Origin: Desulfobacterales bacterium
GTDB taxonomy: Bacteria; Desulfobacterota; Desulfobacteria; Desulfobacterales; C00003060
Assembly: GCA_030668505.1 (NCBI GenBank)
Contig: DAOUTV010000001.1
Span: forward strand, 1-29,061
Length of the DNA: 29,061 nt
Direction of reading: 5' to 3'
Made by a program: the position numbers and the translations under genes. Every line of letters begins with the position of its first letter. Positions within the stretch are counted from its first letter, which is position 1. Below, piece by piece: positions 12,600 through 25,413 of the stretch. The notes below the pieces were generated by a model. That model was not told the origin of the DNA, ran no database searches, and saw only the letters and a program-made list of their open reading frames with translations.

Positions 12600-12881
12600 T
12601 TGATGGTCTCGGAAAAAGTCTGATTCAGTCAATGTGTCATTTCCGCCTGCCAACGCCTGATACAACATTCAGCTTATGTGCCAGCATTTCGGCAATGGCG
12701 GGCAGGTCGACCGCAGGGAGAAATCTTATGTTTTCAGTAAGTTATATCGTAGAGATTTCTCGCTTTCAGCCGTCGTAGCCGAGGCGACTTCGGCCTCCGC
12801 CTTAGGCTATGGCCGACGGCGGATGGCGAAGTCGGCTCGCTCGAAATGACAGGTAATTGGGACTTTTTACGATTTCATCAA
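12600..12881. mobile_element. Family C MITE-like element, copy 2, composite and nested
   Basis: TIRs TTGATGGTCTCGGAAAAAGTC / GACTTTTTACGATTTCATCAA (17/21 match), the same shell as 2642-2778 but with a different core (TGTCATTTC...GAGAAATCT / AGATTTCTC...GAAATGACA) interrupted by two GC-rich inserts. Confidence 0.8.
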
Positions 12882-13017
12882 TATTCAGGATTGAGGAATT
12901 CCAAGATCGTGACATGATTTGCTGTTGGAACCAGGCCGTTGCCTATGGCAATTGTGGACGAGCTAAGTGTGGTTTATCTAAAGGATTGTTGGAAGGTATG
13001 CCGCAGGATTTCAATTC

Positions 13018-13484: not shown

Positions 13485-13781
13485 ATGTCTGCGAAAAATT
13501 TTAGTGTGAAACAAGATGAGCAGGGCATTTACCACTTTGAGGGTGAACTATCTATTCATGCGCTCGATCACCTCAAAGATTTTTTGGACAAGTCTCTCAA
13601 AGGTGGACAGGAGATTGCTATTTCGCTCGCCAAGGTTAGATTTATTGACACCGCGGCCCTTCAATTGCTCATTGCCTTTAAGAAACGGTTCGAACCAGAA
13701 GTTAAGTTGAAAATTTCTGAAGTCTCTTCTGAGGTAGAGAACATTTTATCTCTTTGCGGTCTCAAAACCATATTGGTGTAA
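13485..13781 (+). CDS. STAS domain protein (chemosensory-cluster associated)
   Basis: 98 aa: FEGELSI, ISLAKVRFIDTAALQLL. Lies directly upstream of cheY-cheA. Confidence 0.85.
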   Translation: MSAKNFSVKQDEQGIYHFEGELSIHALDHLKDFLDKSLKGGQEIAISLAKVRFIDTAALQLLIAFKKRFEPEVKLKISEVSSEVENILSLCGLKTILV

Positions 13782-13794
13782 GAGGTGCGCCTAG

Positions 13795-14178
13795 ATGGAA
13801 AAGAATATTTTAATTGTAGAAGATTCGCCTACCATGAGGTCGTCTGTTTCTTTTTGCTTACGTAACGCAGGTTATAGAGTGGCAGAAGCTATAGACGGTA
13901 AAGATGCCTTGAAAAAACTGCAATCCATGAATGACAAAAGTGAACCTCTGTCCCTGATTATCACCGACATTAATATGCCGCAGATGGATGGCATTACTTT
14001 TATTTCAGAAGTAAAAGAGACCGATTTTAAATTTGTTCCCATATTGGTCCTGACCACCGAGAGCGAAGAATCCGTGATAAAAAAAGGACGAGACGCAGGG
14101 GCTTCGGGCTGGCTGTTGAAGCCCTTTCAACCCGAACAGCTTCTGTGGGCTGTCAAAAAGGTCATTTGGACGAAATGA
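13795..14178 (+). CDS. cheY: Single-domain response regulator CheY
   Basis: ILIVEDS, IITDINMP, LVLTTES and WLLKPF; conserved D/T/K residues; ATGA overlap with cheA. Confidence 0.88.
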   Translation: MEKNILIVEDSPTMRSSVSFCLRNAGYRVAEAIDGKDALKKLQSMNDKSEPLSLIITDINMPQMDGITFISEVKETDFKFVPILVLTTESEESVIKKGRDAGASGWLLKPFQPEQLLWAVKKVIWTK

Positions 14179-16334
14179 TCGTAGATGACGAAACATTACA
14201 GATTTTTTTCTCCGAAACAGAAGAACTGCTTAAACTGGCAGAAGAAAGCCTTCTGTCTCTCGAGTCCTCACCCCAATCTGTATCAGATATAGAACAACTC
14301 TTCAGGTCGGTGCATACTCTAAAGAGTGGTGCGGGCATGGTGGGATATAATCGTATTTCAGATTATGCCCACCTTGTCGAAAGCTTGTTGGAACGTCTTA
14401 GAAGTGGCAAGTTGGCCGTTACCAATAACCTTATCACCTTCCTTCTGGACTCAATCGATTTTATGCGGTTTATGGTTGACAGGGTATCTAAGAGTGAAGA
14501 CGAAGTCGATCCGGAAGTTCTCGATAAGCGAAAAGATCAGGTAAGACGTTATTTGGGTGTAGATGGGATAAGCTCAAGTGAAAAGGAACCTGATCCGGTC
14601 AAAGCAGCTACCCAAGAACCCGCAAAAGAATTCAGTTTCTACAAGATCCATCTCAAGTTTCGAAGAGAGCTTTTCTATTCCGGCCAGGACCCGCTCCTGA
14701 TCCTTCTATCCCTATCTGAATTGGGGGAGTTTGTCCAGGTGGTACCCGATCTTTCTGAATTTCCGGATTTTGAAAACTTTTCCATGTATGATCTCTATAT
14801 CTCCTGGCAGATCATTATCAAGACCGAACAGTCTTATGAAGATATCGAAGATGTCTTCATGTTTGTTATAGATGACAACGACATTTGGATTGAAGATATT
14901 ACCAACCAATACAGGGAGGGTATTGATATAGACCTGGCTGAAAAGAAGCTCGGTCAAGTGCTTGTGGAAAAAGGCAAAATCACGGAGGAAGTATTAACCG
15001 ATGCTCTGAAGAAACAAAAGAGGCTTGGTGATATCTTAGTAGAGGACGGGAGGATTCATACTGAAGACCTTGAGAAGGCAGTGGCCGTACAGGAGGAGCG
15101 TCGCACGGTTTATCGCAAGACAACAATCCGTGTTGATGTGGAAAAGATTGATAGCCTTGTAAATCTGGGTGAAGAGATGGGGATTGGACTTGCTAAGGTG
15201 AAGACACTCTTTGAAAAATATACCGGCCCCGGACAAATGGAAATATCGGAAGAGGTCGAAAATCTCTTTAAGGTGAATCAAGATTTCCAGGAGCGAGTCC
15301 AAAGGGTTCGAATGTTTTCTTTGGAAGGAACATTCCATAGATTCCAACGCATGGCAAGGGATCTTGCTCTTCAGCAGAACAAGCAGATCAAAGTGATCTC
15401 GGCCGGACTTGATACCGAGTTAGACAAAGAGGTTATTGAATATAGTACTGACCCCCTAAAACATCTGGTCCGGAATTGTATTGATCACGGCATAGAGTCT
15501 CCGAAAGAAAGGGAGGCGAAGGGGAAACCGCCTACGGGGATCATCAAATTCGAGGCGTATCAGAGAGGTGGGAAAATCTTTATTGAAATTTGTGATGACG
15601 GAAAGGGCATCGATTTGAAAGGCATTCATCGGAAGGCTCTTGAAAGGGGTTGGATTGAACCTGAGCAAGCCCTGACTGAAGAAGCCTTGCTTGACTTTAT
15701 ATTTAAGCCGGGATTATCCACCAGCTCAAAAGTTTCGGAGATCTCCGGCAGAGGAGTTGGGATGGATGTGGTGAGGACACAGCTTAATCAAATCGGAGGC
15801 ACTATAGACATTCATACGGAAAAGGACAAAGGAACCACCTTTATCTTATGTCTGCCCCTGATATCTGCGTTTATGGAGGCCTTGCATGTGTTGGTGCAGG
15901 ACACTTCATTCTTAGTGCCATTGCAGACTGTTGTTGGAACGGAAAAATTCGACAAGAGACTTGTTAAAGGTATTGGAGCCCAGGAAAGGCTGTACCGATT
16001 TCGTGGTGATTATATACCGCTCGCAGATATGACGAAGATCTTACATATTGGTATGCCTCCTACAAACGGCAACACCACAGCAGTGGTCATCGTGGATACA
16101 GGAAAAAAAGTCTTTGGTATGCCTGTGGACGAGGTTTTGGATCCACAACAGATTATTGTCAAGACTCTTGAGACAAACTATCGCAGCGTCAAGGGGATAG
16201 CCGGCGCCACCATTTTGGGGGATGGCTCGGTCTCACTAGTATTGGATCTTTTGGGAGTGGAGGAAATTTTTTTCAGAAATTCCTTTAAAGGAGACGCGAC
16301 CCATGAAAGTGAAGAAAAGGTTGAACAGGGTTAA
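14175..16334 (+). CDS. cheA: Chemotaxis histidine kinase CheA with an internal MshEN-like tandem motif
   Basis: Hpt FRSVHTLKSGAG, IRVDVEKID, HLVRNCIDHGIE, DDGKGID, GRGVGMDVV and a C-terminal CheW-like domain (AGATILGDGSV). Start at ATG 14175 (719 aa). Confidence 0.96.
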   Translation: MIVDDETLQIFFSETEELLKLAEESLLSLESSPQSVSDIEQLFRSVHTLKSGAGMVGYNRISDYAHLVESLLERLRSGKLAVTNNLITFLLDSIDFMRFMVDRVSKSEDEVDPEVLDKRKDQVRRYLGVDGISSSEKEPDPVKAATQEPAKEFSFYKIHLKFRRELFYSGQDPLLILLSLSELGEFVQVVPDLSEFPDFENFSMYDLYISWQIIIKTEQSYEDIEDVFMFVIDDNDIWIEDITNQYREGIDIDLAEKKLGQVLVEKGKITEEVLTDALKKQKRLGDILVEDGRIHTEDLEKAVAVQEERRTVYRKTTIRVDVEKIDSLVNLGEEMGIGLAKVKTLFEKYTGPGQMEISEEVENLFKVNQDFQERVQRVRMFSLEGTFHRFQRMARDLALQQNKQIKVISAGLDTELDKEVIEYSTDPLKHLVRNCIDHGIESPKEREAKGKPPTGIIKFEAYQRGGKIFIEICDDGKGIDLKGIHRKALERGWIEPEQALTEEALLDFIFKPGLSTSSKVSEISGRGVGMDVVRTQLNQIGGTIDIHTEKDKGTTFILCLPLISAFMEALHVLVQDTSFLVPLQTVVGTEKFDKRLVKGIGAQERLYRFRGDYIPLADMTKILHIGMPPTNGNTTAVVIVDTGKKVFGMPVDEVLDPQQIIVKTLETNYRSVKGIAGATILGDGSVSLVLDLLGVEEIFFRNSFKGDATHESEEKVEQG

Positions 16335-16782
16335 TGGCTTGGTTTGCCTGATGTTTTTCTTTTTTTTATGCGCCACTGTTTGGGCGCAGAATCCCAAACC
16401 AACCTATGTGGGTTCTGATGCCTGTCAAGATTGCCATGAAACCGAATATAAAAACTTTAAGGCCTATGCCAAGAAGGCATACTCTTACAAGAGTATCAGG
16501 GAAATGAAAAAGGGCCTCACTGAGACAGAGTTTTGCAAGTGTTTCGAGTGTCACACCACTGGATATGGAAAACCGAGTGGGTTTCGCTCCGAACATGAGA
16601 CGCCCCACCTCATGAACGCAGGTTGCGAGGTCTGTCACGGCCCGGGGAGCCTTCATGTTGAAACCGGGGAACCAAAAGAGATAAAGGGGAGCCTGACGGC
16701 CAAGGACTGCGATGCCTGCCACAGCTCAGAACGTGTTAAGGCTTTTGATTACAAGCCACTGATCCACGGGGGAGCCCATTAG
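16303..16782 (+). CDS. Periplasmic tetraheme cytochrome c (c554-like family)
   Basis: AAGGAG RBS, signal peptide ending ATVWA-Q, four CxxCH motifs (CQDCH, CFECH, CEVCH, CDACH) and C-terminal GGAH. Confidence 0.9.
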   Translation: MKVKKRLNRVNGLVCLMFFFFLCATVWAQNPKPTYVGSDACQDCHETEYKNFKAYAKKAYSYKSIREMKKGLTETEFCKCFECHTTGYGKPSGFRSEHETPHLMNAGCEVCHGPGSLHVETGEPKEIKGSLTAKDCDACHSSERVKAFDYKPLIHGGAH

Positions 16783-16869
16783 TACTGTGTATATTTTGTT
16801 CATTATGTTTGTCGGGTTAACTCAACAAACCCAATAAACGAAATGAACTCAACTTGTGGAGGTAAGGTC

Positions 16870-19182
16870 ATGATAAAATGGACACATCAACTGCAAAGAA
16901 GAACCGGGCTTCGCGTCAAGATTCTTATGGCAACGATCTTGGTGGTCGGTGGATTCACCGGGGTATTTCTTTATCAAACAGTTTCTTTTCATACTCAGAG
17001 CGCCTTGAACCAGGTAGCGGAATCGAGCCAAAGCCTGCTTAAGAACACGTACAGTGCAATCAAATATCCCATGTCAGTTGGAGACAGCATTACAGTTGAG
17101 AAGCAATTAATGGACATAAAAAACCATATGGAAGGCACTGAGGTCTACATATCAGACTTCCACCAGATTGTTCAATACGCCTCAGAAGAAGACCGCATTC
17201 ATACCGGCATCCAGGACTATCTGTTGGGAAAAGAGACCAGAGAAGCGCTTACTGCTGCATTAAGGACTGGATTGTCGCCCCAAAAATCCATTACGGAAAT
17301 CAGAGACGGGGATCCTTTCTTGGTCACAATAATGCCACTTTTAAATGAAAGCTCTTGTCATCACTGCCATGGAGCAAGTCAAAAAGTGCTGGGCACCATG
17401 GTTGTCAAACACCCCGTAAAAGAGGTATACTCGTCTCTGGCCTCAGCCAGAAATCGCTTAATAGGGTTTTCTATTATCGAGATCATTGGGATCATATTAG
17501 TTATCAACTTTCTATTTAATCGACTGGTAACTAGACGCATTAAAAGCTTGGCGGCAAAGACGGGGTTAGTCTCAGCCGGAGATATCACAGTAGAGGTTCA
17601 TGATGATTCTCGGGACTCCATTGGAAGATTAACTCGGAATTTTAACCAGATGATTAAAAACATACGTGATCGGATGGAATATGCCAACAGCCTAAAACTG
17701 GGCATTTCAGAACCTTTTTTTATGGTCGATTCCGATATGAAGCTGACCTTTATGAATGATGCCGCTGCCAAATTTGCGGGTGTTCGCCCTGGAGATGTTC
17801 TGGGAAAAAATACCTGCATACAAGTATTCAAGAGTGATATGTGCGATACGGCGTGCCCCATAAAAAAGGCCATGGAAACCGGTGTAGCCACTGAGGGTTT
17901 CAGGGTCACTACAAAAAACGCTGAGGGGAAAGAAGTTCCCGCTATGGCGAGTGGCGCTGCTCTGAGGGATTCTGCGGGCAAGATTTTGGGCGGGTTTGAA
18001 ATGCTACGCGATATTTCTAAAGAAGTTGAAGCAGAATCCGGGTTGCGAGATTCTTACCACAGGGAAGAAGAAGCAAAGAAGAACTTACAGCATCGGGTAC
18101 AAAGCCTTTCAGACATCTTGAGTAGGGTTGCCGGGGGAGACTTAACAGTAAGGGCCGAAACGAGTGGTGAAAATGACTCGATGGACCGGTTGGTTCAGAG
18201 AACAAATGAAACGTTAGATCACATGAAAGAACTTATTGGACAGACAAAAAAATCCGCCCTAACAGTGGTCATGGGAGTCCGGCATATCTCTGAGGGAAAC
18301 CAGGAACTTTCACAGCGTACCCAGCAACAAGCAGCCACTGTGGAAGAGACGAGCGCAACTGTTGAAGAACTGGTATCCAATATTAACCAAAACGCTACTA
18401 ATACCCAGCGTGCCGACAATCTATCAAAAGAGGCTGTGGCTGTAGCTGTAGAGGGTGGACAGACAGTCGAAAGGACGGCTCAGGCCATGAACGACATGTC
18501 GGAAGGGAGTCGTAAGATAGTTGAGATGATGGATTTGATCAATGAAATAACCTTTCAGACCAACCTTCTTTCGATCAATGCTGCCGTGGAAGCGGCACGG
18601 GCCGGAGAACAGGGGCGGGGATTTAATGTTGTTGCCAACGAAATACGCAGTCTTGCAAAGAGAAGCTCAGAGGCGTCCAAGGATATTCAAAGCCTTGTCC
18701 GTGAGATCATGGATCAGGTTAGTACGGGTAAGGAATGGGTCGGCCAGCTGGAGAACGGATTTAAGAAGATCGTAGAAACCATTAAACAGGTCTCCGATGC
18801 TCTCAGTGAGGTTTCCTTAGCCACCCAGGAAAGTTCAAGAGGAATTGAGCAAATTGGCCAGGGAGTTAATGAGTTGAGTGATGTGATCTCACATAATGCA
18901 TCATTAGTGGATGGGCTGGCAGGTGCCACTGAACAACTCAACGAAAAAGCGGGTTTACTACAAGATATAACGGAAAAATTTACATTGGGCGATCAAGATA
19001 ATATTGAGGTTGAAGAGTTCAGTTTCAATAAGAGTATCCAAGATCAAAAGAAAGACAGGCGTGGAACCCAACCCCCTGCTACGAGGTCATTACGTGAGGA
19101 GTTGGCTACTCAGCACCCCATTGAAGAAAAACCGGAAGACTTGTTGGAAAAAGAGTTGGATGGGGGATTCGAGGAATTCTAA
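16870..19182 (+). CDS. Methyl-accepting chemotaxis protein: TM, periplasmic heme-c sensor, TM, HAMP, PAS, HAMP, MA
   Basis: GGAGGT RBS; two TM helices; CHHCH between them (17356-17370); HAMP; PAS; signalling hairpin FQTNLLSINAAVEAARAGEQGRGF; C-terminal GFEEF pentapeptide. Confidence 0.95.
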   Translation: MIKWTHQLQRRTGLRVKILMATILVVGGFTGVFLYQTVSFHTQSALNQVAESSQSLLKNTYSAIKYPMSVGDSITVEKQLMDIKNHMEGTEVYISDFHQIVQYASEEDRIHTGIQDYLLGKETREALTAALRTGLSPQKSITEIRDGDPFLVTIMPLLNESSCHHCHGASQKVLGTMVVKHPVKEVYSSLASARNRLIGFSIIEIIGIILVINFLFNRLVTRRIKSLAAKTGLVSAGDITVEVHDDSRDSIGRLTRNFNQMIKNIRDRMEYANSLKLGISEPFFMVDSDMKLTFMNDAAAKFAGVRPGDVLGKNTCIQVFKSDMCDTACPIKKAMETGVATEGFRVTTKNAEGKEVPAMASGAALRDSAGKILGGFEMLRDISKEVEAESGLRDSYHREEEAKKNLQHRVQSLSDILSRVAGGDLTVRAETSGENDSMDRLVQRTNETLDHMKELIGQTKKSALTVVMGVRHISEGNQELSQRTQQQAATVEETSATVEELVSNINQNATNTQRADNLSKEAVAVAVEGGQTVERTAQAMNDMSEGSRKIVEMMDLINEITFQTNLLSINAAVEAARAGEQGRGFNVVANEIRSLAKRSSEASKDIQSLVREIMDQVSTGKEWVGQLENGFKKIVETIKQVSDALSEVSLATQESSRGIEQIGQGVNELSDVISHNASLVDGLAGATEQLNEKAGLLQDITEKFTLGDQDNIEVEEFSFNKSIQDQKKDRRGTQPPATRSLREELATQHPIEEKPEDLLEKELDGGFEEF

Positions 19183-19634
19183 TGTCCGAAATTCAGCAAT
19201 ATGTAATCTTTTCACTAAATGAACAAATATATGGCATTGAAGTCCCCAAGATAAAAGAGGTCGTCAGCTATCGAAAGATCACGCCTCTTCCCAATATGGT
19301 TGGGTTTATCAAGGGGATTATTAATCTGAGGGGGGTTGTTCTGCCGGTATTTGATCTGAGAGAAAAGTTCAATCTTTCAGAAACCACTTACACCCCTTTT
19401 CACATAATCATTGTGATGGAGATATCGGGAAGAGCTATGGGGGTTATCGTGGACGAGATTTCGGACGTGGTGGAACTCTCACCCGATGAAGTTCAAGCCC
19501 CTTCCAATCTTCCTCCCGATGTACAAGCCGAATATATCAAAGGTATTGGGAAAAAAGAACATGAACTTATCGTCCTGTTGGATGTTGATCGACTCCTGAG
19601 TTCCAAAGAACTCGAGATCCTGGATGCTACCTGA
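19182..19634 (+). CDS. cheW: Coupling protein CheW
   Basis: QYVIFSL, YGIEV..IKEV, LPNMVGFIKGIINLRGVVLPVFDLR, GVIVDEISDV. TAATG overlap with the MCP. Confidence 0.95.
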   Translation: MSEIQQYVIFSLNEQIYGIEVPKIKEVVSYRKITPLPNMVGFIKGIINLRGVVLPVFDLREKFNLSETTYTPFHIIIVMEISGRAMGVIVDEISDVVELSPDEVQAPSNLPPDVQAEYIKGIGKKEHELIVLLDVDRLLSSKELEILDAT

Positions 19635-19639
19635 TATGT

Positions 19640-19759
19640 ATGAGCTGTCCTCTTATGGTCCCCTGTCTGAATGAAACAGATTTTGAGGGATACGGGGCTT
19701 TGTCCACACTGCAAATTACTACAGTACTCCAGCGCTTCATCCCGGAAGGGGAAGGATAG
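19640..19759 (+). pseudogene. Possible remnant of a deleted cheR
   Basis: 130-bp gap exactly where cheR usually lies. LNETDFE followed, after a one-base frame change, by IRGFVH weakly resembles the first helix of CheR. Speculative. Confidence 0.2.
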
Positions 19760-19764
19760 GGGCT

Positions 19765-20349
19765 TTGTATCAATTCTACAGCAACAGGTTGAAGAAGACA
19801 GTCATTATGCTCATGCCGGGTGAGTATTTTGCCACTCAAAAGGATCAGGTGCTTTACACCGTTGTGGGCTCATGTATCGCCACTTGTATCTATGATAGGG
19901 AACAAAAAATAGCCGGGATGAACCATTTTTTACTTCCGGGAATGGTACGTCCTGATGATATGCTGACATCTGATCTAGGCCGATACGGCATGTTTGCCAT
20001 GGAGCTGTTGATTGGCGAACTCATTAAGTTGGGAGCCCGGAGAGGGAAACTTGAGGCTAAGTTATTTGGGGGGGGCAATGTATTGAAATTTAGAAGCTGT
20101 GACGGCGATGTGACCAGGTCCAATATTCGTTTTGCAAAAAAATTCTTAGAGCTGGAAGGAATCCCTGCAGTGAGCCAAGATCTTGGAGGGAACGGCGGAA
20201 GAAAGATCTTGTTTTTTAGTGATAGTGATAAAGTCCTCTTGAAACGATTTGATATTAGGAAAGAGCGATCATTCATTAAATCCGAAGAGACTTATAAGAA
20301 AACCATTTTTCAAGAACCACATATAAAATCACCACTAAGGCTGTTTTAA
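19765..20349 (+). CDS. cheD: Chemoreceptor glutamine deamidase CheD
   Basis: LMPGEYF, TVVGSCIA (catalytic Cys), AGMNHFLLP, RYG..AMELLI, EAKLFGGG. TTG start, exact start uncertain. Confidence 0.93.
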   Translation: MYQFYSNRLKKTVIMLMPGEYFATQKDQVLYTVVGSCIATCIYDREQKIAGMNHFLLPGMVRPDDMLTSDLGRYGMFAMELLIGELIKLGARRGKLEAKLFGGGNVLKFRSCDGDVTRSNIRFAKKFLELEGIPAVSQDLGGNGGRKILFFSDSDKVLLKRFDIRKERSFIKSEETYKKTIFQEPHIKSPLRLF

Positions 20350-20352
20350 TAT

Positions 20353-21387
20353 ATGAAGCCTATCCGCGTGCTTATTGTTGACGATTCACCCATAGTGCAA
20401 TCAGTGCTGACGAGTCTCTTGTCTGATGAACCTGATTTTGAGGTATTGGGAACCGCTTCTGATCCCTTTGAGGCAAACGATTTGATTGTGAAAAAAAGGC
20501 CTGATGTGATCACACTGGACATTGAGATGCCTCGAATGGATGGAATCACCTTTCTTAAACGACTTATGAGCTTCCGTCCCGTCCCGGTGATCATGATCAG
20601 TTCCTATACCCGCGAAAACAGCATTTGCACCTTCGAGGCCCTGAATGCCGGGGCCGTTGATTTTGTTGCCAAACCCACAGGGGATGTCAGGAGCGGTCTT
20701 CGGAAAATGAAACATGAGATTACCACCAAATTAAGAGCTGCAAAACGGGCCAAAATAAAACCCTCCGGACTATTTGGCAAATCAAGAAGACTAGTATCGA
20801 TAGGGAAAAACAGGGCATCGAACAAGATCATCGTCATCGGGGCCTCAACAGGCGGAACTCAGGCCATACAAACACTGCTGGAGTGCATGCCTTCAAATGT
20901 AAATGGAATTGTCATTGTCCAGCACATGCCGGTTCGCTATACAAATCCCTTTGCCCAGAGGTTGAACGGATTGTTTCTAATGAACATTAAGGAGGCCGAG
21001 GACGGTGATCGCATTGACAAAGGAAATGTACTGGTGGCGCCTGGTGGGCGACACTTGCAGGTAGCAAAGGACCCTATGGGATATTATGTACAGCTGCAAG
21101 ACGGTCGGCCGGTCAAACACCAGCGGCCTTCAGTTGATATCATGTTCCATTCGGTTGCAAAGACTGCTGCCTCCGACGGCATTGGCATACTCCTGACAGG
21201 GATGGGAGATGACGGAGCCGATGGCTTGCTGGCTATGAAGCAGGCTGGGGCTTTTACCGTTGCACAGGATGAAGCCAGTTCGGTAATTTTTGGTATGCCA
21301 GGAGCGGCTATAGAACGTGGTGCAGCTATAGTGGTGGCTGAGCTGGATGATATAGCAAGTGTTGTTCTTTCGTCGCTTAAGACGTGA
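20353..21387 (+). CDS. cheB: Chemotaxis methylesterase CheB (REC + esterase)
   Basis: REC (LDIEMP, VAKP), GASTGG, VQHMP, RPSVD, LTGMGDDGA and IFGMP; Ser/His/Asp triad present. Confidence 0.97.
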   Translation: MKPIRVLIVDDSPIVQSVLTSLLSDEPDFEVLGTASDPFEANDLIVKKRPDVITLDIEMPRMDGITFLKRLMSFRPVPVIMISSYTRENSICTFEALNAGAVDFVAKPTGDVRSGLRKMKHEITTKLRAAKRAKIKPSGLFGKSRRLVSIGKNRASNKIIVIGASTGGTQAIQTLLECMPSNVNGIVIVQHMPVRYTNPFAQRLNGLFLMNIKEAEDGDRIDKGNVLVAPGGRHLQVAKDPMGYYVQLQDGRPVKHQRPSVDIMFHSVAKTAASDGIGILLTGMGDDGADGLLAMKQAGAFTVAQDEASSVIFGMPGAAIERGAAIVVAELDDIASVVLSSLKT

Positions 21388-21409
21388 CAGTTAGGATAGG
21401 AGTCGGGAT

Positions 21410-22321
21410 ATGGCCAAGATACTTCTTATAGACGATAGTCGTCTGATTGCCCATGCAGCCAAGAAAACTTTGACCAGGGTGGGACACGAGATTATTTTAG
21501 CTGAGGATGGCGTCGCCGGCCTGGAGAAAGCAAAGTCTGAACAGCCTGACTTGATCCTGTTGGATTTAATCATGCCCGGTATGGACGGATACCAGGTGTG
21601 TCAAAAATTAATAAAGGAGGAAAGCTCTAAGGAGACACCTGTCATTATGCTTACGTCAAAGTCTGAGCCTGCCGACAAGGTAAAGGCTCTGAAAATAGGG
21701 GCTTTGGACTATGTGACCAAGCCTTTTGACGAAGCCGAGTTGGTAGCTCGTGTGAATATACACTTACGACTCAAAGAGCTCTATGAAACGGTTCAGGAGA
21801 AAAATCGGCAGCTCCAGGACCTGGCCAACAAAGACGGACTGACGGATTTGTTCAATCATCGATATTTCCACGAGCAGTTGTCAAAGGACTTTTTACGCGC
21901 CAGACGGTATCATGAGTCTTTGACGTGCGTTTTGTTGGACATAGACCACTTTAAGAAGTTTAACGATACACACGGTCACCTGACAGGGGACGTCGTATTG
22001 AAAGCACTTGGATGCATCATCAAAGATTCGATCAGGGACAGCGATTTTGCGGCCAGATACGGGGGTGAAGAGTTTGCGCTCGTTTTGTATCATACCGATG
22101 GGCCGGGGGGATTTGATGTGGCTGAACGGCTCCGGCGGAGGGTGGATGATAATGAAGTACATGATAAAGGCAACGTGCTGCATGTCAGCATCAGTGCGGG
22201 AGTTGCTACGTTTCCACACAAGCTGATCCACAATTCCAAGGAGCTGATTGAATGTACTGATAAGGCACTTTATCAGGCCAAGAACAACGGCCGAAACCGA
22301 GTAGAGAAATTTGACGGATAA
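21410..22321 (+). CDS. REC-GGDEF diguanylate cyclase (WspR/PleD-like)
   Basis: REC (LLDLIMP, MLTS, VTKP), DGLTDLFN, DIDHFKKFNDTHGH, I-site RDSD five residues before an intact GGEEF, KNNGRN. Confidence 0.94.
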   Translation: MAKILLIDDSRLIAHAAKKTLTRVGHEIILAEDGVAGLEKAKSEQPDLILLDLIMPGMDGYQVCQKLIKEESSKETPVIMLTSKSEPADKVKALKIGALDYVTKPFDEAELVARVNIHLRLKELYETVQEKNRQLQDLANKDGLTDLFNHRYFHEQLSKDFLRARRYHESLTCVLLDIDHFKKFNDTHGHLTGDVVLKALGCIIKDSIRDSDFAARYGGEEFALVLYHTDGPGGFDVAERLRRRVDDNEVHDKGNVLHVSISAGVATFPHKLIHNSKELIECTDKALYQAKNNGRNRVEKFDG

Positions 22322-22360: not shown

Positions 22361-22987
22361 ATGAAAGATAGCAATGCGCCAACTGAAGAAGGGATCCAAA
22401 GGATCAACCGGCTCCAGCGCGAATTTTTCAGTGGACTCATCCACGTTTTTGACCCGCCTTTACCGGAAGGTGTGCCGGAGCGTCTGAAAAAGATTGTGGC
22501 ATCCGGCAAGATAGCTAAAGGAGATGTTGTACTGGATGTTGGTACGGGCACAGGGATATTGGTCCCCCTGATTCAAGCGTATGAGCCTGAGGCCATCTTT
22601 GCCTGTGATCTTTCGGAGGTTATGCTGGCTCATTTACACGAACAGTACCCGTATGCAAAGACCATCGCGAAAGATGTACGGGATCTCACCCTGCCTGAAG
22701 ACAGTATTGATGTGGTCTTCATGAATGCCTGTTATCCTAACATTGTGGATAAAGACAGAGCCTTTGCGAATACTAGTCGGATGATGAAACCAGATGGGCG
22801 CATAGTGATCAGCCATCCTTTGGGAAAATCATTTGTTGAATTATTAAAGGAAAAATCGCCCTTTCCTCTGGATGACTTTCCCGAGAAACCTGATGCTAAA
22901 GTTTTACTTAAGCATTATGGTTTTGACATGACCGACTTTGTAGACGAGGAAAAGCTCTATATTTTGGTAGCCACCAAGCAGCACTAG
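22361..22987 (+). CDS. Class I SAM-dependent methyltransferase
   Basis: VLDVGTGTG motif I, ACDLSEVML, MMKPDGRIVISH. Confidence 0.88.
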   Translation: MKDSNAPTEEGIQRINRLQREFFSGLIHVFDPPLPEGVPERLKKIVASGKIAKGDVVLDVGTGTGILVPLIQAYEPEAIFACDLSEVMLAHLHEQYPYAKTIAKDVRDLTLPEDSIDVVFMNACYPNIVDKDRAFANTSRMMKPDGRIVISHPLGKSFVELLKEKSPFPLDDFPEKPDAKVLLKHYGFDMTDFVDEEKLYILVATKQH

Positions 22988-23021: not shown

Positions 23022-23471
23022 ATGGCTGGTGGATTGGACGTAATTATCGTTGACGACGAACCGGGCGTATGTGAAGTGGTCTATGGAATCATCAGGCGAT
23101 TCTATACGTGGGGCGACGTACTTGCCATTACAAATGCCGATGAGGCAATAGCGTATTGTCTGAGTCGTGATACCGGTATTGCGATTTTTGTAGTAGATGT
23201 ATTTCTTGGTGAAAAGAGTGGGTTTTATTTACTTAATATGATTGAGAAAAAGTTTCCCACAATTTATCAAGACACAATTATGATCACTGGAAATGCCAAT
23301 GATGATGTTGTGAACATGTGTGTGGCCTCAGACGTAAACTATTTGTTGGAAAAACCTATCAAACCATTCGCATTGCAGCTTGCCGTAAGGGCGATTGTGG
23401 CGAAATACCTGAAATTTGCGAAGAAGCTGTTGCGAGATCCAGCTTTTGCCAAGAGCGTTGCAAAATTTTGA
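23022..23471 (+). CDS. Single-domain response regulator receiver with C-terminal helix
   Basis: Strong GGAGG RBS; IIVDDE, FVVDVFL, IMITG and LLEKP. Confidence 0.85.
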   Translation: MAGGLDVIIVDDEPGVCEVVYGIIRRFYTWGDVLAITNADEAIAYCLSRDTGIAIFVVDVFLGEKSGFYLLNMIEKKFPTIYQDTIMITGNANDDVVNMCVASDVNYLLEKPIKPFALQLAVRAIVAKYLKFAKKLLRDPAFAKSVAKF

Positions 23472-23486
23472 TTTGCCCTCTTCGCC

Positions 23487-23515
23487 TTGACATCTTTGCC
23501 TGCCTGTAATAGACT
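23487..23515 (+). promoter_or_regulatory. Near-consensus sigma70 promoter with no adjacent ORF
   Basis: TTGACA, 17-nt spacer, TAGACT. Confidence 0.55.
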
Positions 23516-23688
23516 GCTTCAGCTGAATCCGTTGCGAATTAAGTGTCAAAGACTTTGATGCAAAGTTGTGCCTGAGTGCTCGGGAAAAGCACTTTCTGTC
23601 TATGTACGATTTTTACAGCTTTAAACACGCAACTATTTACTCGTAACAAAAAATTCCTATTAGAAGCCATTTCAAAATGGGGGCAAAC

Positions 23689-23874
23689 CTTAGGGCTCGC
23701 GCAAAAATAACTTCACATTTTGGCATCTCAGCTTCAGGCTATCTTTGACCGATACTTATTCGCAAAATACGCGAAATAGCTGGCTATTCCTGTGGTTTTG
23801 CTCAATCGGATCGGCCAAAACTAACCCAAATCTGAGCGCCAATTCTGCCAAGTTATTCTTGCGCAAGCCCTTAG
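23689..23874. mobile_element. Family B MITE-like element, copy 1
   Basis: Terminal inverted repeats CTTAGGGCTCGCGCAAAAATAACTT / AAGTTATTCTTGCGCAAGCCCTTAG (22/25 match). CTTAG occurs as a direct repeat at both ends. No transposase. Confidence 0.75.
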
Positions 23875-23891
23875 ATACAGTATAACTCCCC

Positions 23892-24171
23892 ATGATGCTG
23901 CGACCCTATGAATCAAAATCGGATGACTTCGAGTTGGTTTTTTGGGGGCAGAGGTGGATTCAGAATTCCATTTCAGAATACCGGAGGGGCAACTGCAAAT
24001 TTGCGTCATTCTTTCCAGCACCTGAAAAGGATAGCAAAGGAAATCGTTTGGAAAAGGTTAGAAGAGGATTATAATGAGCTGGATTCCTTGCTTAGTGACG
24101 ATTTTCCAAGGCATGGGGTTAAGGATGCACTTAAAACAATTGTTTCTTTCCTAAAACTTCAAAAACTGTAA
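23892..24171 (+). pseudogene. Degraded gene fragment, possibly the C-terminus of an AbiEii-like nucleotidyltransferase
   Basis: Two overlapping short ORFs in different frames between two repeat elements. IVWKRLEEDYNELDSLLSDDFP looks protein-like; the family guess is from recollection only. Confidence 0.25.
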
Positions 24172-24252
24172 CACTTTACGGGTATGAAAAAGACCTGTTT
24201 TACTCACAGGAGTGAGTAAAATCCGGCCTCTTTCAAAAAGCTAAACTCTAAC
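24168..24252 (-). repeat. Family A palindromic repeat, short form, copy 3
   Basis: Reverse complement differs from 1294-1378 at 6 positions; hairpin TTTTACTCAC-TCCT-GTGAGTAAAA. Confidence 0.9.
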
Positions 24253-24315: not shown

Positions 24316-25413
24316 ATGAAAACCACACTTAGCATCATCAAAGCCGACATTGGCAGTGTGGGAGGGCACATTGCCCCCAGCGGGCAATTGTTTTCTGTTG
24401 TGAAAGAGTACGTAGAAGACGCCTCCCGTGGGATTGTTAATGACGCATTTATCTCTAGCACTGGGGATGACATTGCGCTGCTGATCTCCCACCAAAAGGG
24501 CGTTTTGAACGAACAGGTCCATAAGCTGGCATGGGATGCATTTCTGGAAGGGACCAAGAGGGCTAAGCAACAAGGCCTGTACGGTGCCGGCCAGGATCTG
24601 CTGAAGGATGCCTTTGCGGGTAATGTAAAGGGGATGGGGCCCGCAGTTGCCGAGATTGAGTTTGAAGAGCGTCCTGCCGAGCCCTTCCTGATGTTTGCCG
24701 CTGACAAAACCGATCCGGGCGCCTATAACCTGCCTATCTACTTGGCTTTTGCGGACCCAATGTACAATTCGGGCTTGATCCTGGCACCAAAAATGGAAAA
24801 AGGTTTCAAGTTTACCATAATGGATGTTTCCTATACCGAAGGTGACAGGATTATCGAGTTGAATACACCGGAAAACATCTACGATATTGCTGCTCTTCTG
24901 AGGGATAATCAGCGCTTTGTAGTCGAATCGATTCATTCCCGTGAAGATGGGGAACAAGTCGTTTCTGTGAGCACGACACGCCTTCATAATATTGCGGGAA
25001 AATACACGGGTAAGGACGATCCGGTGATGCTGGTGCGTGTGCAGGGCTCCTTTCCAGCAACTGGCGAAGTGCTTGCGCCCTTCAACATATGTCACTATGT
25101 GGCTGGATTCATGCGCGGAAGCCATACAGGTCCCCTGATGCCTGTAAAGCGCAACAGCACTATATCTTTTTTTGATGGTCCACCTATTGTCTCCTGTATG
25201 GCGTTTTGCGTGCACAACGGAAAGTTAACGCATCCTGCCGACGCCTTTGACCACCCGTTCTGGGATTATGTGCGCGACAAGGCCTCCCGTAAGGCCTATG
25301 AGATAAGGGAACAGGGCTTTTCGGGAGCGGCCATGCTTCCTTACTCTGAGCTCGAATATGGCGGGATCGTAAAAAAGATGGAGAGGCTTGAACCCGAGTT
25401 TAAAGTTCGATAG
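24316..25413 (+). CDS. fbp: Bifunctional fructose-1,6-bisphosphate aldolase/phosphatase (class V FBPase)
   Basis: GGAGG RBS; SIIKADIGSVGGH, GDDIAL, YGAGQDLL, GNVKGMGP, ADKTDPGAYN, GKYTGKDDP, AGFMRGSH.GPLMP and EYGG. Confidence 0.97.
   Translation: MKTTLSIIKADIGSVGGHIAPSGQLFSVVKEYVEDASRGIVNDAFISSTGDDIALLISHQKGVLNEQVHKLAWDAFLEGTKRAKQQGLYGAGQDLLKDAFAGNVKGMGPAVAEIEFEERPAEPFLMFAADKTDPGAYNLPIYLAFADPMYNSGLILAPKMEKGFKFTIMDVSYTEGDRIIELNTPENIYDIAALLRDNQRFVVESIHSREDGEQVVSVSTTRLHNIAGKYTGKDDPVMLVRVQGSFPATGEVLAPFNICHYVAGFMRGSHTGPLMPVKRNSTISFFDGPPIVSCMAFCVHNGKLTHPADAFDHPFWDYVRDKASRKAYEIREQGFSGAAMLPYSELEYGGIVKKMERLEPEFKVR

Follow-up and report, generated by a model that had tools for sequence, protein, structure and literature searches.

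What does a chemosensory operon control when it ends in a gene for a diguanylate cyclase and also encodes a haem-binding receptor and a tetrahaem cytochrome? Such an operon lies in a 29,061-nucleotide (nt) stretch of DNA from a Desulfobacterales bacterium (contig DAOUTV010000001.1 of assembly GCA_030668505.1), referred to here as the window, which is one contig of a 1.98-Mb metagenome-assembled genome (MAG) with 298 contigs and 82% completeness. A preliminary description, made from the sequence alone, had proposed a redox-sensing circuit in which the kinase CheA phosphorylates the cyclase and the product, cyclic di-GMP (c-di-GMP), acts back on CheA. We regard it as reasonably likely that this operon, which encodes the only chemosensory pathway found in the MAG, converts a haem-sensed periplasmic signal into c-di-GMP rather than swimming, and this core reading is independent of any feedback on the kinase.

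The pathway can be pictured in five steps. The periplasmic c-type haem of the receptor would change its ligation or redox state, in response either to the periplasmic redox poise, perhaps relayed or buffered by the tetrahaem cytochrome, or to a diatomic ligand such as nitric oxide (NO); further input may come from a conserved PAS domain on the cytoplasmic side that is rich in Cys. The receptor, of the 36H class, would set CheA autophosphorylation together with CheW, and phosphorylated CheA would then serve three receivers: CheY, as a phosphate sink or an additional output; CheB, for adaptation with CheD; and the receiver (REC) domain of the cyclase. The cyclase would in turn make c-di-GMP for the many PilZ receptors of the genome. 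These steps are inferred; what the comparison of loci shows is the cyclase in the output slot, the loss of cheR, and a segment of CheA derived from the c-di-GMP-binding domain MshEN. Coordinates of all features are given in Table 1.

The output of the pathway

The cyclase is intact as a predicted enzyme, with an active site, an I-site, and a phosphorylatable REC domain. Both the GGEEF signature (nt 22061-22075) and the RxxD I-site (RDSD, nt 22034-22045, five residues upstream), which the preliminary description had called intact, are readily seen in the translation, as are the guanine-binding N and D (FND...GHLTGD) and the receiver's DD/D/T/K residues, including the acceptor Asp. The enzyme has the canonical Asp at the position where Hypr enzymes have Ser. 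Orthologous cyclases retain GGEEF in 20 of 20 cases and RxxD in 19 of 20.

Hundreds of close homologues of this CheA were found, and the gene neighborhoods of relatives were read from precomputed Pfam labels. The ten-gene module is present in Desulfatibacillum (53% CheA identity; the genome is complete), in a metagenomic lineage with the same identity (53%), and in a relative with 76% identity (locus L050); at all three loci cheR lies between cheW and cheD, and the REC-GGDEF gene is the final one before unrelated genes that are often on the opposite strand (mutL, pfk). A minimal variant (L007) consists of STAS-CheY-CheA-MCP-CheW-REC-GGDEF, MCP being the methyl-accepting chemotaxis protein, and retains the cyclase right after cheW. 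For a survey of the phylum, CheA was searched for in 401 genomes, 40 loci were fetched, and their domains were mapped by phmmer with the window proteins. The module occurs in 20 of the 400 other sampled genomes, spread over eight family codes, and is present at every locus with at least 42% CheA identity. The preliminary description had made its case depend on conserved synteny of the cyclase, and this holds: wherever a locus extends far enough, REC-GGDEF closes the module, even at 42% CheA identity, and the flanking genes differ and are unrelated.

It is conceivable that the cyclase merely adjoins the che genes while another kinase controls it, as receiver-GGDEF proteins are common and a 22-nt gap, across which co-transcription is presumed, lies between it and cheB. 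We nonetheless consider this most improbable, given the conserved position after the che genes among varied flanks, and given that sister clades hold a different REC output in the same slot. On transcription itself, consensus promoter and terminator scans gave results at chance level, which weighs against our reading. A 509-nt contig of ∼95% identity from a cold-seep metatranscriptome bridges the cheB-cyclase junction, and another metatranscriptome contig bridges the cyclase-methyltransferase junction; both are compatible with co-transcription and favor it weakly, since they were assembled from the sequences of a relative and might stem from DNA carried over into the library.

Two genes downstream of the cyclase were considered and set aside. 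The methyltransferase gene at 22361 follows the cyclase in L050 (76% CheA identity) only, with mutL, pfk, or other genes at that place in L006-L008, and we rejected it as a CheR substitute since it has generic class I domains and is shared with one close relative only. The stand-alone receiver at 23022 was rejected as a pathway member since it is absent from that position in L006-L008 and L050.

Loci with 36-40% CheA identity begin with STAS-CheY-CheA and end with CheR-CheD-CheB, and their output slot is occupied by a REC-HATPase_c_2-PAS-SpoIIE protein, or by REC-SpoIIE followed by REC-HATPase_c_2 (L029-L032, L034-L036). In a maximum-likelihood tree of CheA the STAS-bearing systems form one branch (support 99/99), within which the cyclase-bearing loci (group A) share a branch of their own (100/99) beside the phosphatase-bearing ones (group B), with the limits that these groups are partly defined by the same features and that some group A contigs stop short of where the cyclase gene would be. 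Most simply, there would be a single chemosensory core with an output slot that is filled by a partner-switch regulator in some loci and by a cyclase in others. The gene order of stage-1 F7 chemosensory systems is STAS, cheY, cheA, receptor and cheW, cheR, cheD, cheB, and an output gene (Ortega et al. 2020, PMC7184735), and a partner switch of the CrsR/CrsA type has a place in that order; one is encoded at Che1, the F7 locus in Shewanella (Fortier et al. 2022, PMC9855816). Because the sister clades carry a CrsR-like REC-kinase-PP2C regulator in that position, the cyclase appears to be the swapped-in output of an ancestral-F7-like pathway; of the F7 partner-switching output, only the STAS protein is left in the window, and REC-GGDEF stands in the output slot. 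We note that the sister-clade output amounts to a CrsR/CrsA-like partner switch within Desulfobacterota, and that another sister group (group C) has an extra Hpt-CheW protein and is without the MshEN-like segment.

On gene order and receptor class we call the system F7-like, not a proven F7 member. The preliminary description had guessed at an F7/F8-like class; F7-like fits the published gene order (PMC7184735), and the Tar-length signaling domain on which the guess was based in part is of the 36H class. A point against this label is that the CheA of Escherichia coli, the only F7 reference in our quick tree and one on a long branch, falls outside the clade, and an approximately unbiased (AU) test on joining it with the clade did not reject that arrangement (p=0.33).

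Adaptation is degraded in this strain through the loss of the in-cluster cheR. Compared with L050, cheW is whole and cheR is kept for its first ∼11 codons, after which ∼795 bp are replaced by ∼66 bp (19688-19753), and homology resumes at the final few nucleotides of cheR. An assembly artefact is unlikely: one contig of the source sample runs through the junction and matches it fully, and two other samples gave contigs that enter or cross the scar region. The receptor keeps its GFEEF tail and its QQ/EE methylation-type pairs despite the deletion. A CheR encoded elsewhere in the MAG, on contig C78, was rejected as the relocated gene product, with 37% identity and a place in a cluster of the PilZ-kinase-CheR-NtrC type; this cluster (L001:1-3579 and just beyond) codes for PilZ, a histidine-kinase-like ATPase, CheR, and a sigma54-type response regulator. 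The pairing of PilZ with CheR recalls MapZ-CheR1. Losses of adaptation genes are repeated among the relatives (cheR also in L024 and L025, cheB in L022, all three of cheR, cheD, and cheB in L007), a decay that fits a pathway not mainly tracking gradients.

An alternative is that the system serves primarily for taxis, CheY acting on flagella or on type IV pili, with the cyclase as a mere phosphate sink or side branch. CheY, CheW, CheD, CheB, the methylation helices, and the receptor pentapeptide are all kept, and in G039, a relative with a complete genome, flagellar FliG occurs with this CheA alone, so that CheY may drive motility there. The MAG itself has one CheA and one MCP, the sole one found, with four GGDEF matches (three strong), ∼10 PilZ matches, and the one CheR elsewhere. 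No FliG was found in its contigs, although at 82% completeness this does not prove that flagella are absent, and both this incompleteness and the G039 genome count against a role apart from swimming. FliG was likewise not found in a 100%-complete relative (G078), where this CheA is again the only one. FliG is present in all three relatives that have three CheAs apiece, and for at least two of these relatives the gene of a different CheA is close to fliG on the same contig. The gammaproteobacterial F7 systems to which this one is homologous are reported as non-motility systems (PMC7184735; PMC9855816). These observations, together with the repeated loss of adaptation genes, make taxis quite improbable as the main function, though CheY could still be a second output in some hosts. 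The ∼10 PilZ-domain open reading frames (ORFs) are a rich set of c-di-GMP receptors for a genome of ∼2 Mb.

The haem receptor and its neighboring cytochrome

The receptor is built of a periplasmic haem-c sensor (sCache_haem or Mcp40H-20 type), HAMP, a cytoplasmic PAS domain, a 36H signaling domain, and a C-terminal GFEEF. Its CHHCH motif (residues 172-176, nt 17356-17370) sits between two hydrophobic segments (approximately residues 25-45 and 205-228) and is therefore placed in the periplasm. The sensor scores 32-34 bits with Pfam PF21563 (Mcp40H-20_sensor, cut-off 27) and matches the Geobacter GSU0935 and GSU0582 structures (PDB 3b42 and 3b47), with a weak match to Tll0287. By these criteria the receptor is a member of the GSU0582/GSU0935 haem-c sensor family, with haem attachment predicted. 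CXXCH is kept in every sensor-bearing receptor among the relatives, and the relatives likewise conserve the GFEEF tail and, within the PAS domain, a Cys-x9-Cys-x3-Cys motif; the exception to sensor retention is the L019-L021 group, whose receptors have no sensor at all. We note that the PAS motif (17815-17856, MCP residues 325-338) is retained even in these sensor-less receptors, and that it could be a candidate second input of a metal, Fe-S, or thiol-redox kind.

The signaling domain is collinear with residues 230-489 of E. coli Tar (39% identity) and with the NCBIfam Tsr/Tar/Aer2 models, and it contains QQ/EE methylation-type pairs. Tar belongs to the 36H class, and we assign the receptor to it because the alignment has only one single-residue gap.

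The cytochrome has an N-terminal hydrophobic segment or signal peptide and four CXXCH motifs, at residues 41, 80, 108, and 136. It scores 64 bits with Pfam PF13435 (cut-off 20.8) and matches PDB entries 6qvm and 1bvb (E=6e-7 for the latter). Where relatives have the gene, cheA always precedes it and the MCP gene follows. Carriers include the early branches L022, L028, and L012 as well as the window's own subclade, and because the early-branching lineages carry it, we think it probably ancestral to the module and yet a dispensable accessory. The gene is absent from a subclade of 14 rows and from L007, in which the receptors, those of L019-L021 excepted, keep the CXXCH sensor. The preliminary description had treated cytochrome and receptor as an input pair; the two genes are indeed adjacent, and the pairing is weakened by the comparison, with the cytochrome missing in many lineages that keep the haem receptor. 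The cytochrome may act as a redox relay to the receptor haem; it is equally open that it keeps the sensor haem reduced or handles N-oxides locally.

The absence of the cytochrome from lineages that keep the sensor weighs against a redox input, as does recent work on the sensor family itself. Deshpande et al. (2026 preprint, PMC12889525) reclassified the GSU0582/GSU0935 family as haem-containing sCache (sCache_haem) and reported for the members fused to signaling domains the properties of NO sensors, not those of redox or O2 sensors. The input could then be a gas ligand, most likely NO, with the cytochrome only keeping the sensor haem ferrous or handling N-oxides. Family membership of the sensor and its weak Tll0287 match favor this, and NO control of c-di-GMP is an established theme, represented among the works that Deshpande et al. 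cite. Against it stand the interpretation of the Geobacter sensors as covering a redox range with distinct midpoint potentials and of DcrA, whose layout is likewise a periplasmic c-haem followed by a cytoplasmic PAS domain, as a redox/O2 sensor, as well as the probable ancestry of the cytochrome, which suggests a functional pairing. We hold NO as the input to be possible rather than probable; in either case our reading of a haem-sensed periplasmic signal would apply.

The MshEN-derived segment of CheA

Directly before its dimerization domain, CheA has a segment that scores 47.1 bits with NCBIfam NF053729 ("c-di-GMP motif, MshE-related"; curated cut-off 38) and also matches NfrB models. PDB matches include PilF (6f8l, E=1.2e-14), the PilF c-di-GMP domain (8pdk), and MshE (5htl, E=0.002). 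The segment fits two 24-residue RLGxxLVxxG(I/F)(L/V)xxxxLxxxLxxQ motifs, with K for R at position 1 of motif 1 and K/R at position 11 of both motifs, and it is conserved in all 120 homologues among the matches listed. Pfam T2SSE_N gave no match to the segment even at E=10, the sole weak match being DUF4388. The MshEN-like motifs reported in the preliminary description are thus present, and on profile and structure-database matches the MshEN derivation of the segment is real.

The segment was also thought to be a special part of this circuit, and here the comparison decides otherwise. Group B, with its phosphatase output, has it, as do group D, which is without STAS, and 26 of 30 further CheA paralogues (a share biased upward, as 20 of the 30 were picked since their alignment began at the segment), three of which are encoded near flagellar genes; it is missing from group C, from four of the 30 paralogues, and from E. 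coli CheA. Co-occurrence with the cyclase was therefore rejected, the segment being present in groups A, B, and D and in most of group E: most sampled CheA paralogues of the phylum carry it, whether a cyclase is nearby or not.

Several properties argue that c-di-GMP does not act on this CheA, the distribution just described being the first of them. The spacer between the two motifs is one residue across groups A, B, and D, whereas the canonical 53-residue unit has five, and the flagellar-cluster and other paralogues have 3-9. In an AlphaFold2 model made from 39 sequences, helices 2 and 3 of the segment are continuous, with a predicted local distance difference test (pLDDT) score of 60-75, and Foldseek on this model gave no match to MshE or PilF, only a weak one to CheA P2. 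A control paralogue with a normal spacer (L056; AlphaFold2 from 19 sequences, pLDDT 85-95) is predicted to form four helices that superpose on c-di-GMP-bound MshE (5htl) and PilF (8pdk) at 0.9-1.2 Å over 58 residues. Both motifs of our CheA, moreover, have a basic residue where MshE has I/F. It is plausible, and to our minds a little better than an even chance, that the segment is an inherited helical linker that has lost c-di-GMP binding or never had it, such that the receptor alone controls the kinase. This must be set against the passing of the curated NCBIfam cut-off, the strong conservation of the main motif residues ([KR]LG, LV, G, L, L, Q) over at least the 52-95% identical homologues, and the fact that the GSPII-B domain of PilF, crystallized with c-di-GMP, likewise has Lys at position 1 of its motif. 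Because the segment abuts the dimerization domain, a binding site across the dimer is conceivable.

Taking both sides together, feedback of c-di-GMP on this particular CheA is possible but less likely than not. A bolder proposal, which we consider unlikely, is that the contracted MshEN hairpins bind c-di-GMP across the CheA dimer so that the kinase is tuned by its own cyclase, that the cytochrome is a redox wire, and that c-di-GMP regulates many CheAs of the phylum, flagellar ones included; if true, cross-dimer binding would give a self-reinforcing or self-limiting switch. The domain order is not new, as Wang et al. (2016, PMC5013675) listed Hpt-P2-MshEN-P3-P4-P5 for the CheA of Aeromonas veronii, which tempers the idea of feedback. 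Our literature search found no paper testing c-di-GMP binding by a CheA.

At loci L051, L053, L054, L056-L058, and L062-L081, an MshEN-like tandem with a spacer of 3-9 residues stands directly before P3. Together with the control model, this suggests that a c-di-GMP input to the chemotaxis kinases of the phylum may be widespread. Further MshE-type c-di-GMP motifs are present elsewhere in the MAG, at C245:6832-7152 (a 243-residue ORF with several tandem copies) and C171:3238-3384 (a 774-residue ORF).

Locus content and known systems

Genes in the window were called from the ORF listing with Pfam and NCBIfam scans. All of the parts named in the preliminary description are where it had put them, and no flagellar or pilus genes were found in the window by Pfam scans, again in agreement with it. 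The components of its STAS-CheY-CheA-CheW-CheD-CheB core are likewise all present; its order needs correction, as the cytochrome and MCP genes stand between cheA and cheW. Eleven same-strand genes run from the STAS gene to the stand-alone receiver gene, with gaps of −32 to +60 nt and a single exception of 130 nt.

Table 1. Features of the chemosensory operon and its downstream genes (window positions; aa, amino acids)
Feature	Position	Strand	Basis and remarks
STAS-domain protein, anti-sigma-factor-antagonist type, CrsA-like	13485..13781	+	Pfam STAS 49.5 bits; first gene of the module
CheY, single-domain response regulator	13795..14178	+	Pfam Response_reg 98 bits
CheA histidine kinase (P1 Hpt, P2, MshEN-like tandem, P3, P4, P5)	14175..16334	+	Pfam Hpt, H-kinase_dim, HATPase_c, and CheW
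Tandem MshEN-like 24-residue motifs, CheA aa 268-316, directly before the dimerization domain	14946..15092	+	NCBIfam NF053729
Periplasmic tetrahaem cytochrome c, c554-like, 159 aa	16303..16782	+	Pfam Cytochrome_C554 64 bits; 32-nt overlap with the 3' end of cheA
Chemoreceptor (MCP), 779 aa	16843..19182	+	Pfam Mcp40H-20_sensor, HAMP, PAS, MCPsignal
CheW coupling protein	19182..19634	+	Pfam CheW 127 bits
cheR deletion scar	19635..19764	not assigned	blastn and tblastn against relative L050
CheD receptor deamidase	19765..20349	+	Pfam CheD 90 bits; NCBIfam PRK13487 188 bits
CheB methylesterase, REC and catalytic domain	20353..21387	+	Pfam CheB_methylest 202 bits, Response_reg; NCBIfam PRK00742 410 bits, above cut-off
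REC-GGDEF diguanylate cyclase	21410..22321	+	Pfam GGDEF 157 bits, REC 108 bits
Class I S-adenosylmethionine (SAM) methyltransferase	22361..22987	+	Pfam Methyltransf_11/25 only; no CheR domains
Stand-alone receiver protein	23022..23471	+	Pfam Response_reg 43 bits

The STAS gene opens every group A, B, or C locus that reaches that far. Its product has a conserved D-T-A-A-L motif at the usual phosphorylation position, the site being D-T in group A and variable in the sister groups. The CheY translation contains the acidic pocket, acceptor Asp, Thr, and Lys. The cheA ORF opens with GTG at 14145; the likely start is the ATG at 14175, whose letters overlap the stop codon of cheY as ATGA, and homologues have 718-720 residues. 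By Foldseek, the P2 fold weakly matches P2 of Thermotoga maritima CheA.

Upstream of the STAS gene, ∼890 nt are non-coding and rich in repeats. The word depth in contigs reaches 500-3900x at 12600-12986 and 23436-24200, compared with ∼23x across the operon genes, and from the depth of these flanks we conclude that high-copy elements resembling miniature inverted-repeat transposable elements (MITEs) bracket the operon region; variant joints are numerous at 12641-12839. A class V fructose-1,6-bisphosphate aldolase/phosphatase gene downstream (24316-25413, FBPase_3 530 bits) is unrelated to the operon. The public contigs closest to the window are from Desulfobacterales and Desulfobacteria MAGs, and the sequencing runs that hold its sequence are from marine-sediment and cold-seep samples.

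Each part of the system is of a known family, and the combination is not previously described in the literature that we found: our search turned up no paper describing this module, which agrees with the view of the preliminary description that no characterized system combines its parts. Overall, the system comes nearest to the ancestral F7 type, with another output in place of the original one. The systems of this type (Shewanella oneidensis Che1 CrsR/CrsA, Vibrio cholerae cluster III, and Pseudomonas aeruginosa Che2; PMC7184735, PMC9855816) share the gene order, a 36H receptor with a cytoplasmic PAS domain and a C-terminal pentapeptide, and a suspected non-motility role. They differ in having a partner-switching regulator where this locus has REC-GGDEF, and a soluble b-haem Aer2 receptor where this one is a transmembrane protein with a periplasmic c-haem; our locus has an in-cluster tetrahaem cytochrome and is without McpA, a second STAS, and a second CheW.

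The Wsp system of Pseudomonas (WspA-F and WspR) is also a chemosensory pathway with a terminal REC-GGDEF protein that has an I-site, and its output is c-di-GMP and surface or biofilm behavior, not taxis, as proposed here for the present system. Wsp has a hybrid CheA-REC kinase (WspE) and two CheW-like proteins and is without CheY, CheD, and STAS. In contrast, the CheA described here ends at P5 without a receiver, and it is accompanied by separate CheY, CheD, and STAS proteins and a haem-sensing receptor.

A functional analogue from a related metal- and sulfur-respiring lineage is the Esn system of Geobacter sulfurreducens (EsnA MCP, EsnB CheW, EsnC CheA, and EsnD REC-cyclase; Chan et al. 2017, PMC5585712), the components of which are required for a redox-related behavior, electrode colonization. 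The esn genes are scattered, however, EsnA is of the 40H class and lacks a periplasmic domain, having a GAF domain in the cytoplasm instead, and no cytochrome is co-encoded. Desulfovibrio vulgaris DcrA and Geobacter GSU0582 and GSU0935 (3B47/3B42, PF21563) share the periplasmic sensor with one CXXCH, in a layout like that of DcrA; they are described without a dedicated cytochrome gene or a cyclase output, and the Geobacter receptors are 40H rather than 36H. The MshEN domains of V. cholerae MshE and Thermus PilF GSPII-B (PMC5013675) share the two 24-residue [RK]LGxxLVxxG...L...L..Q motifs and differ from the CheA segment in the spacer and in a fold that the predicted CheA structure does not match. 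Features of the window's own are the cheR deletion and the apparent lack of another chemosensory or flagellar system.

Sulfate reducers of sediments and cold seeps and their relatives must time attachment, aggregation, and dispersal by redox conditions or reactive nitrogen species. The module would link a periplasmic haem sensor to c-di-GMP, and because cultured Desulfatibacillum carries it, it is a genetically tractable candidate for such sensing. It also shows a chemosensory core exchanging a sigma-factor partner switch for a cyclase output. The presence of an MshEN-type segment before the dimerization domain in most sampled CheAs of the phylum raises the question of direct c-di-GMP action on chemotaxis kinases, and whether c-di-GMP acts on CheA kinases is in our view the most valuable lead to emerge from this locus.

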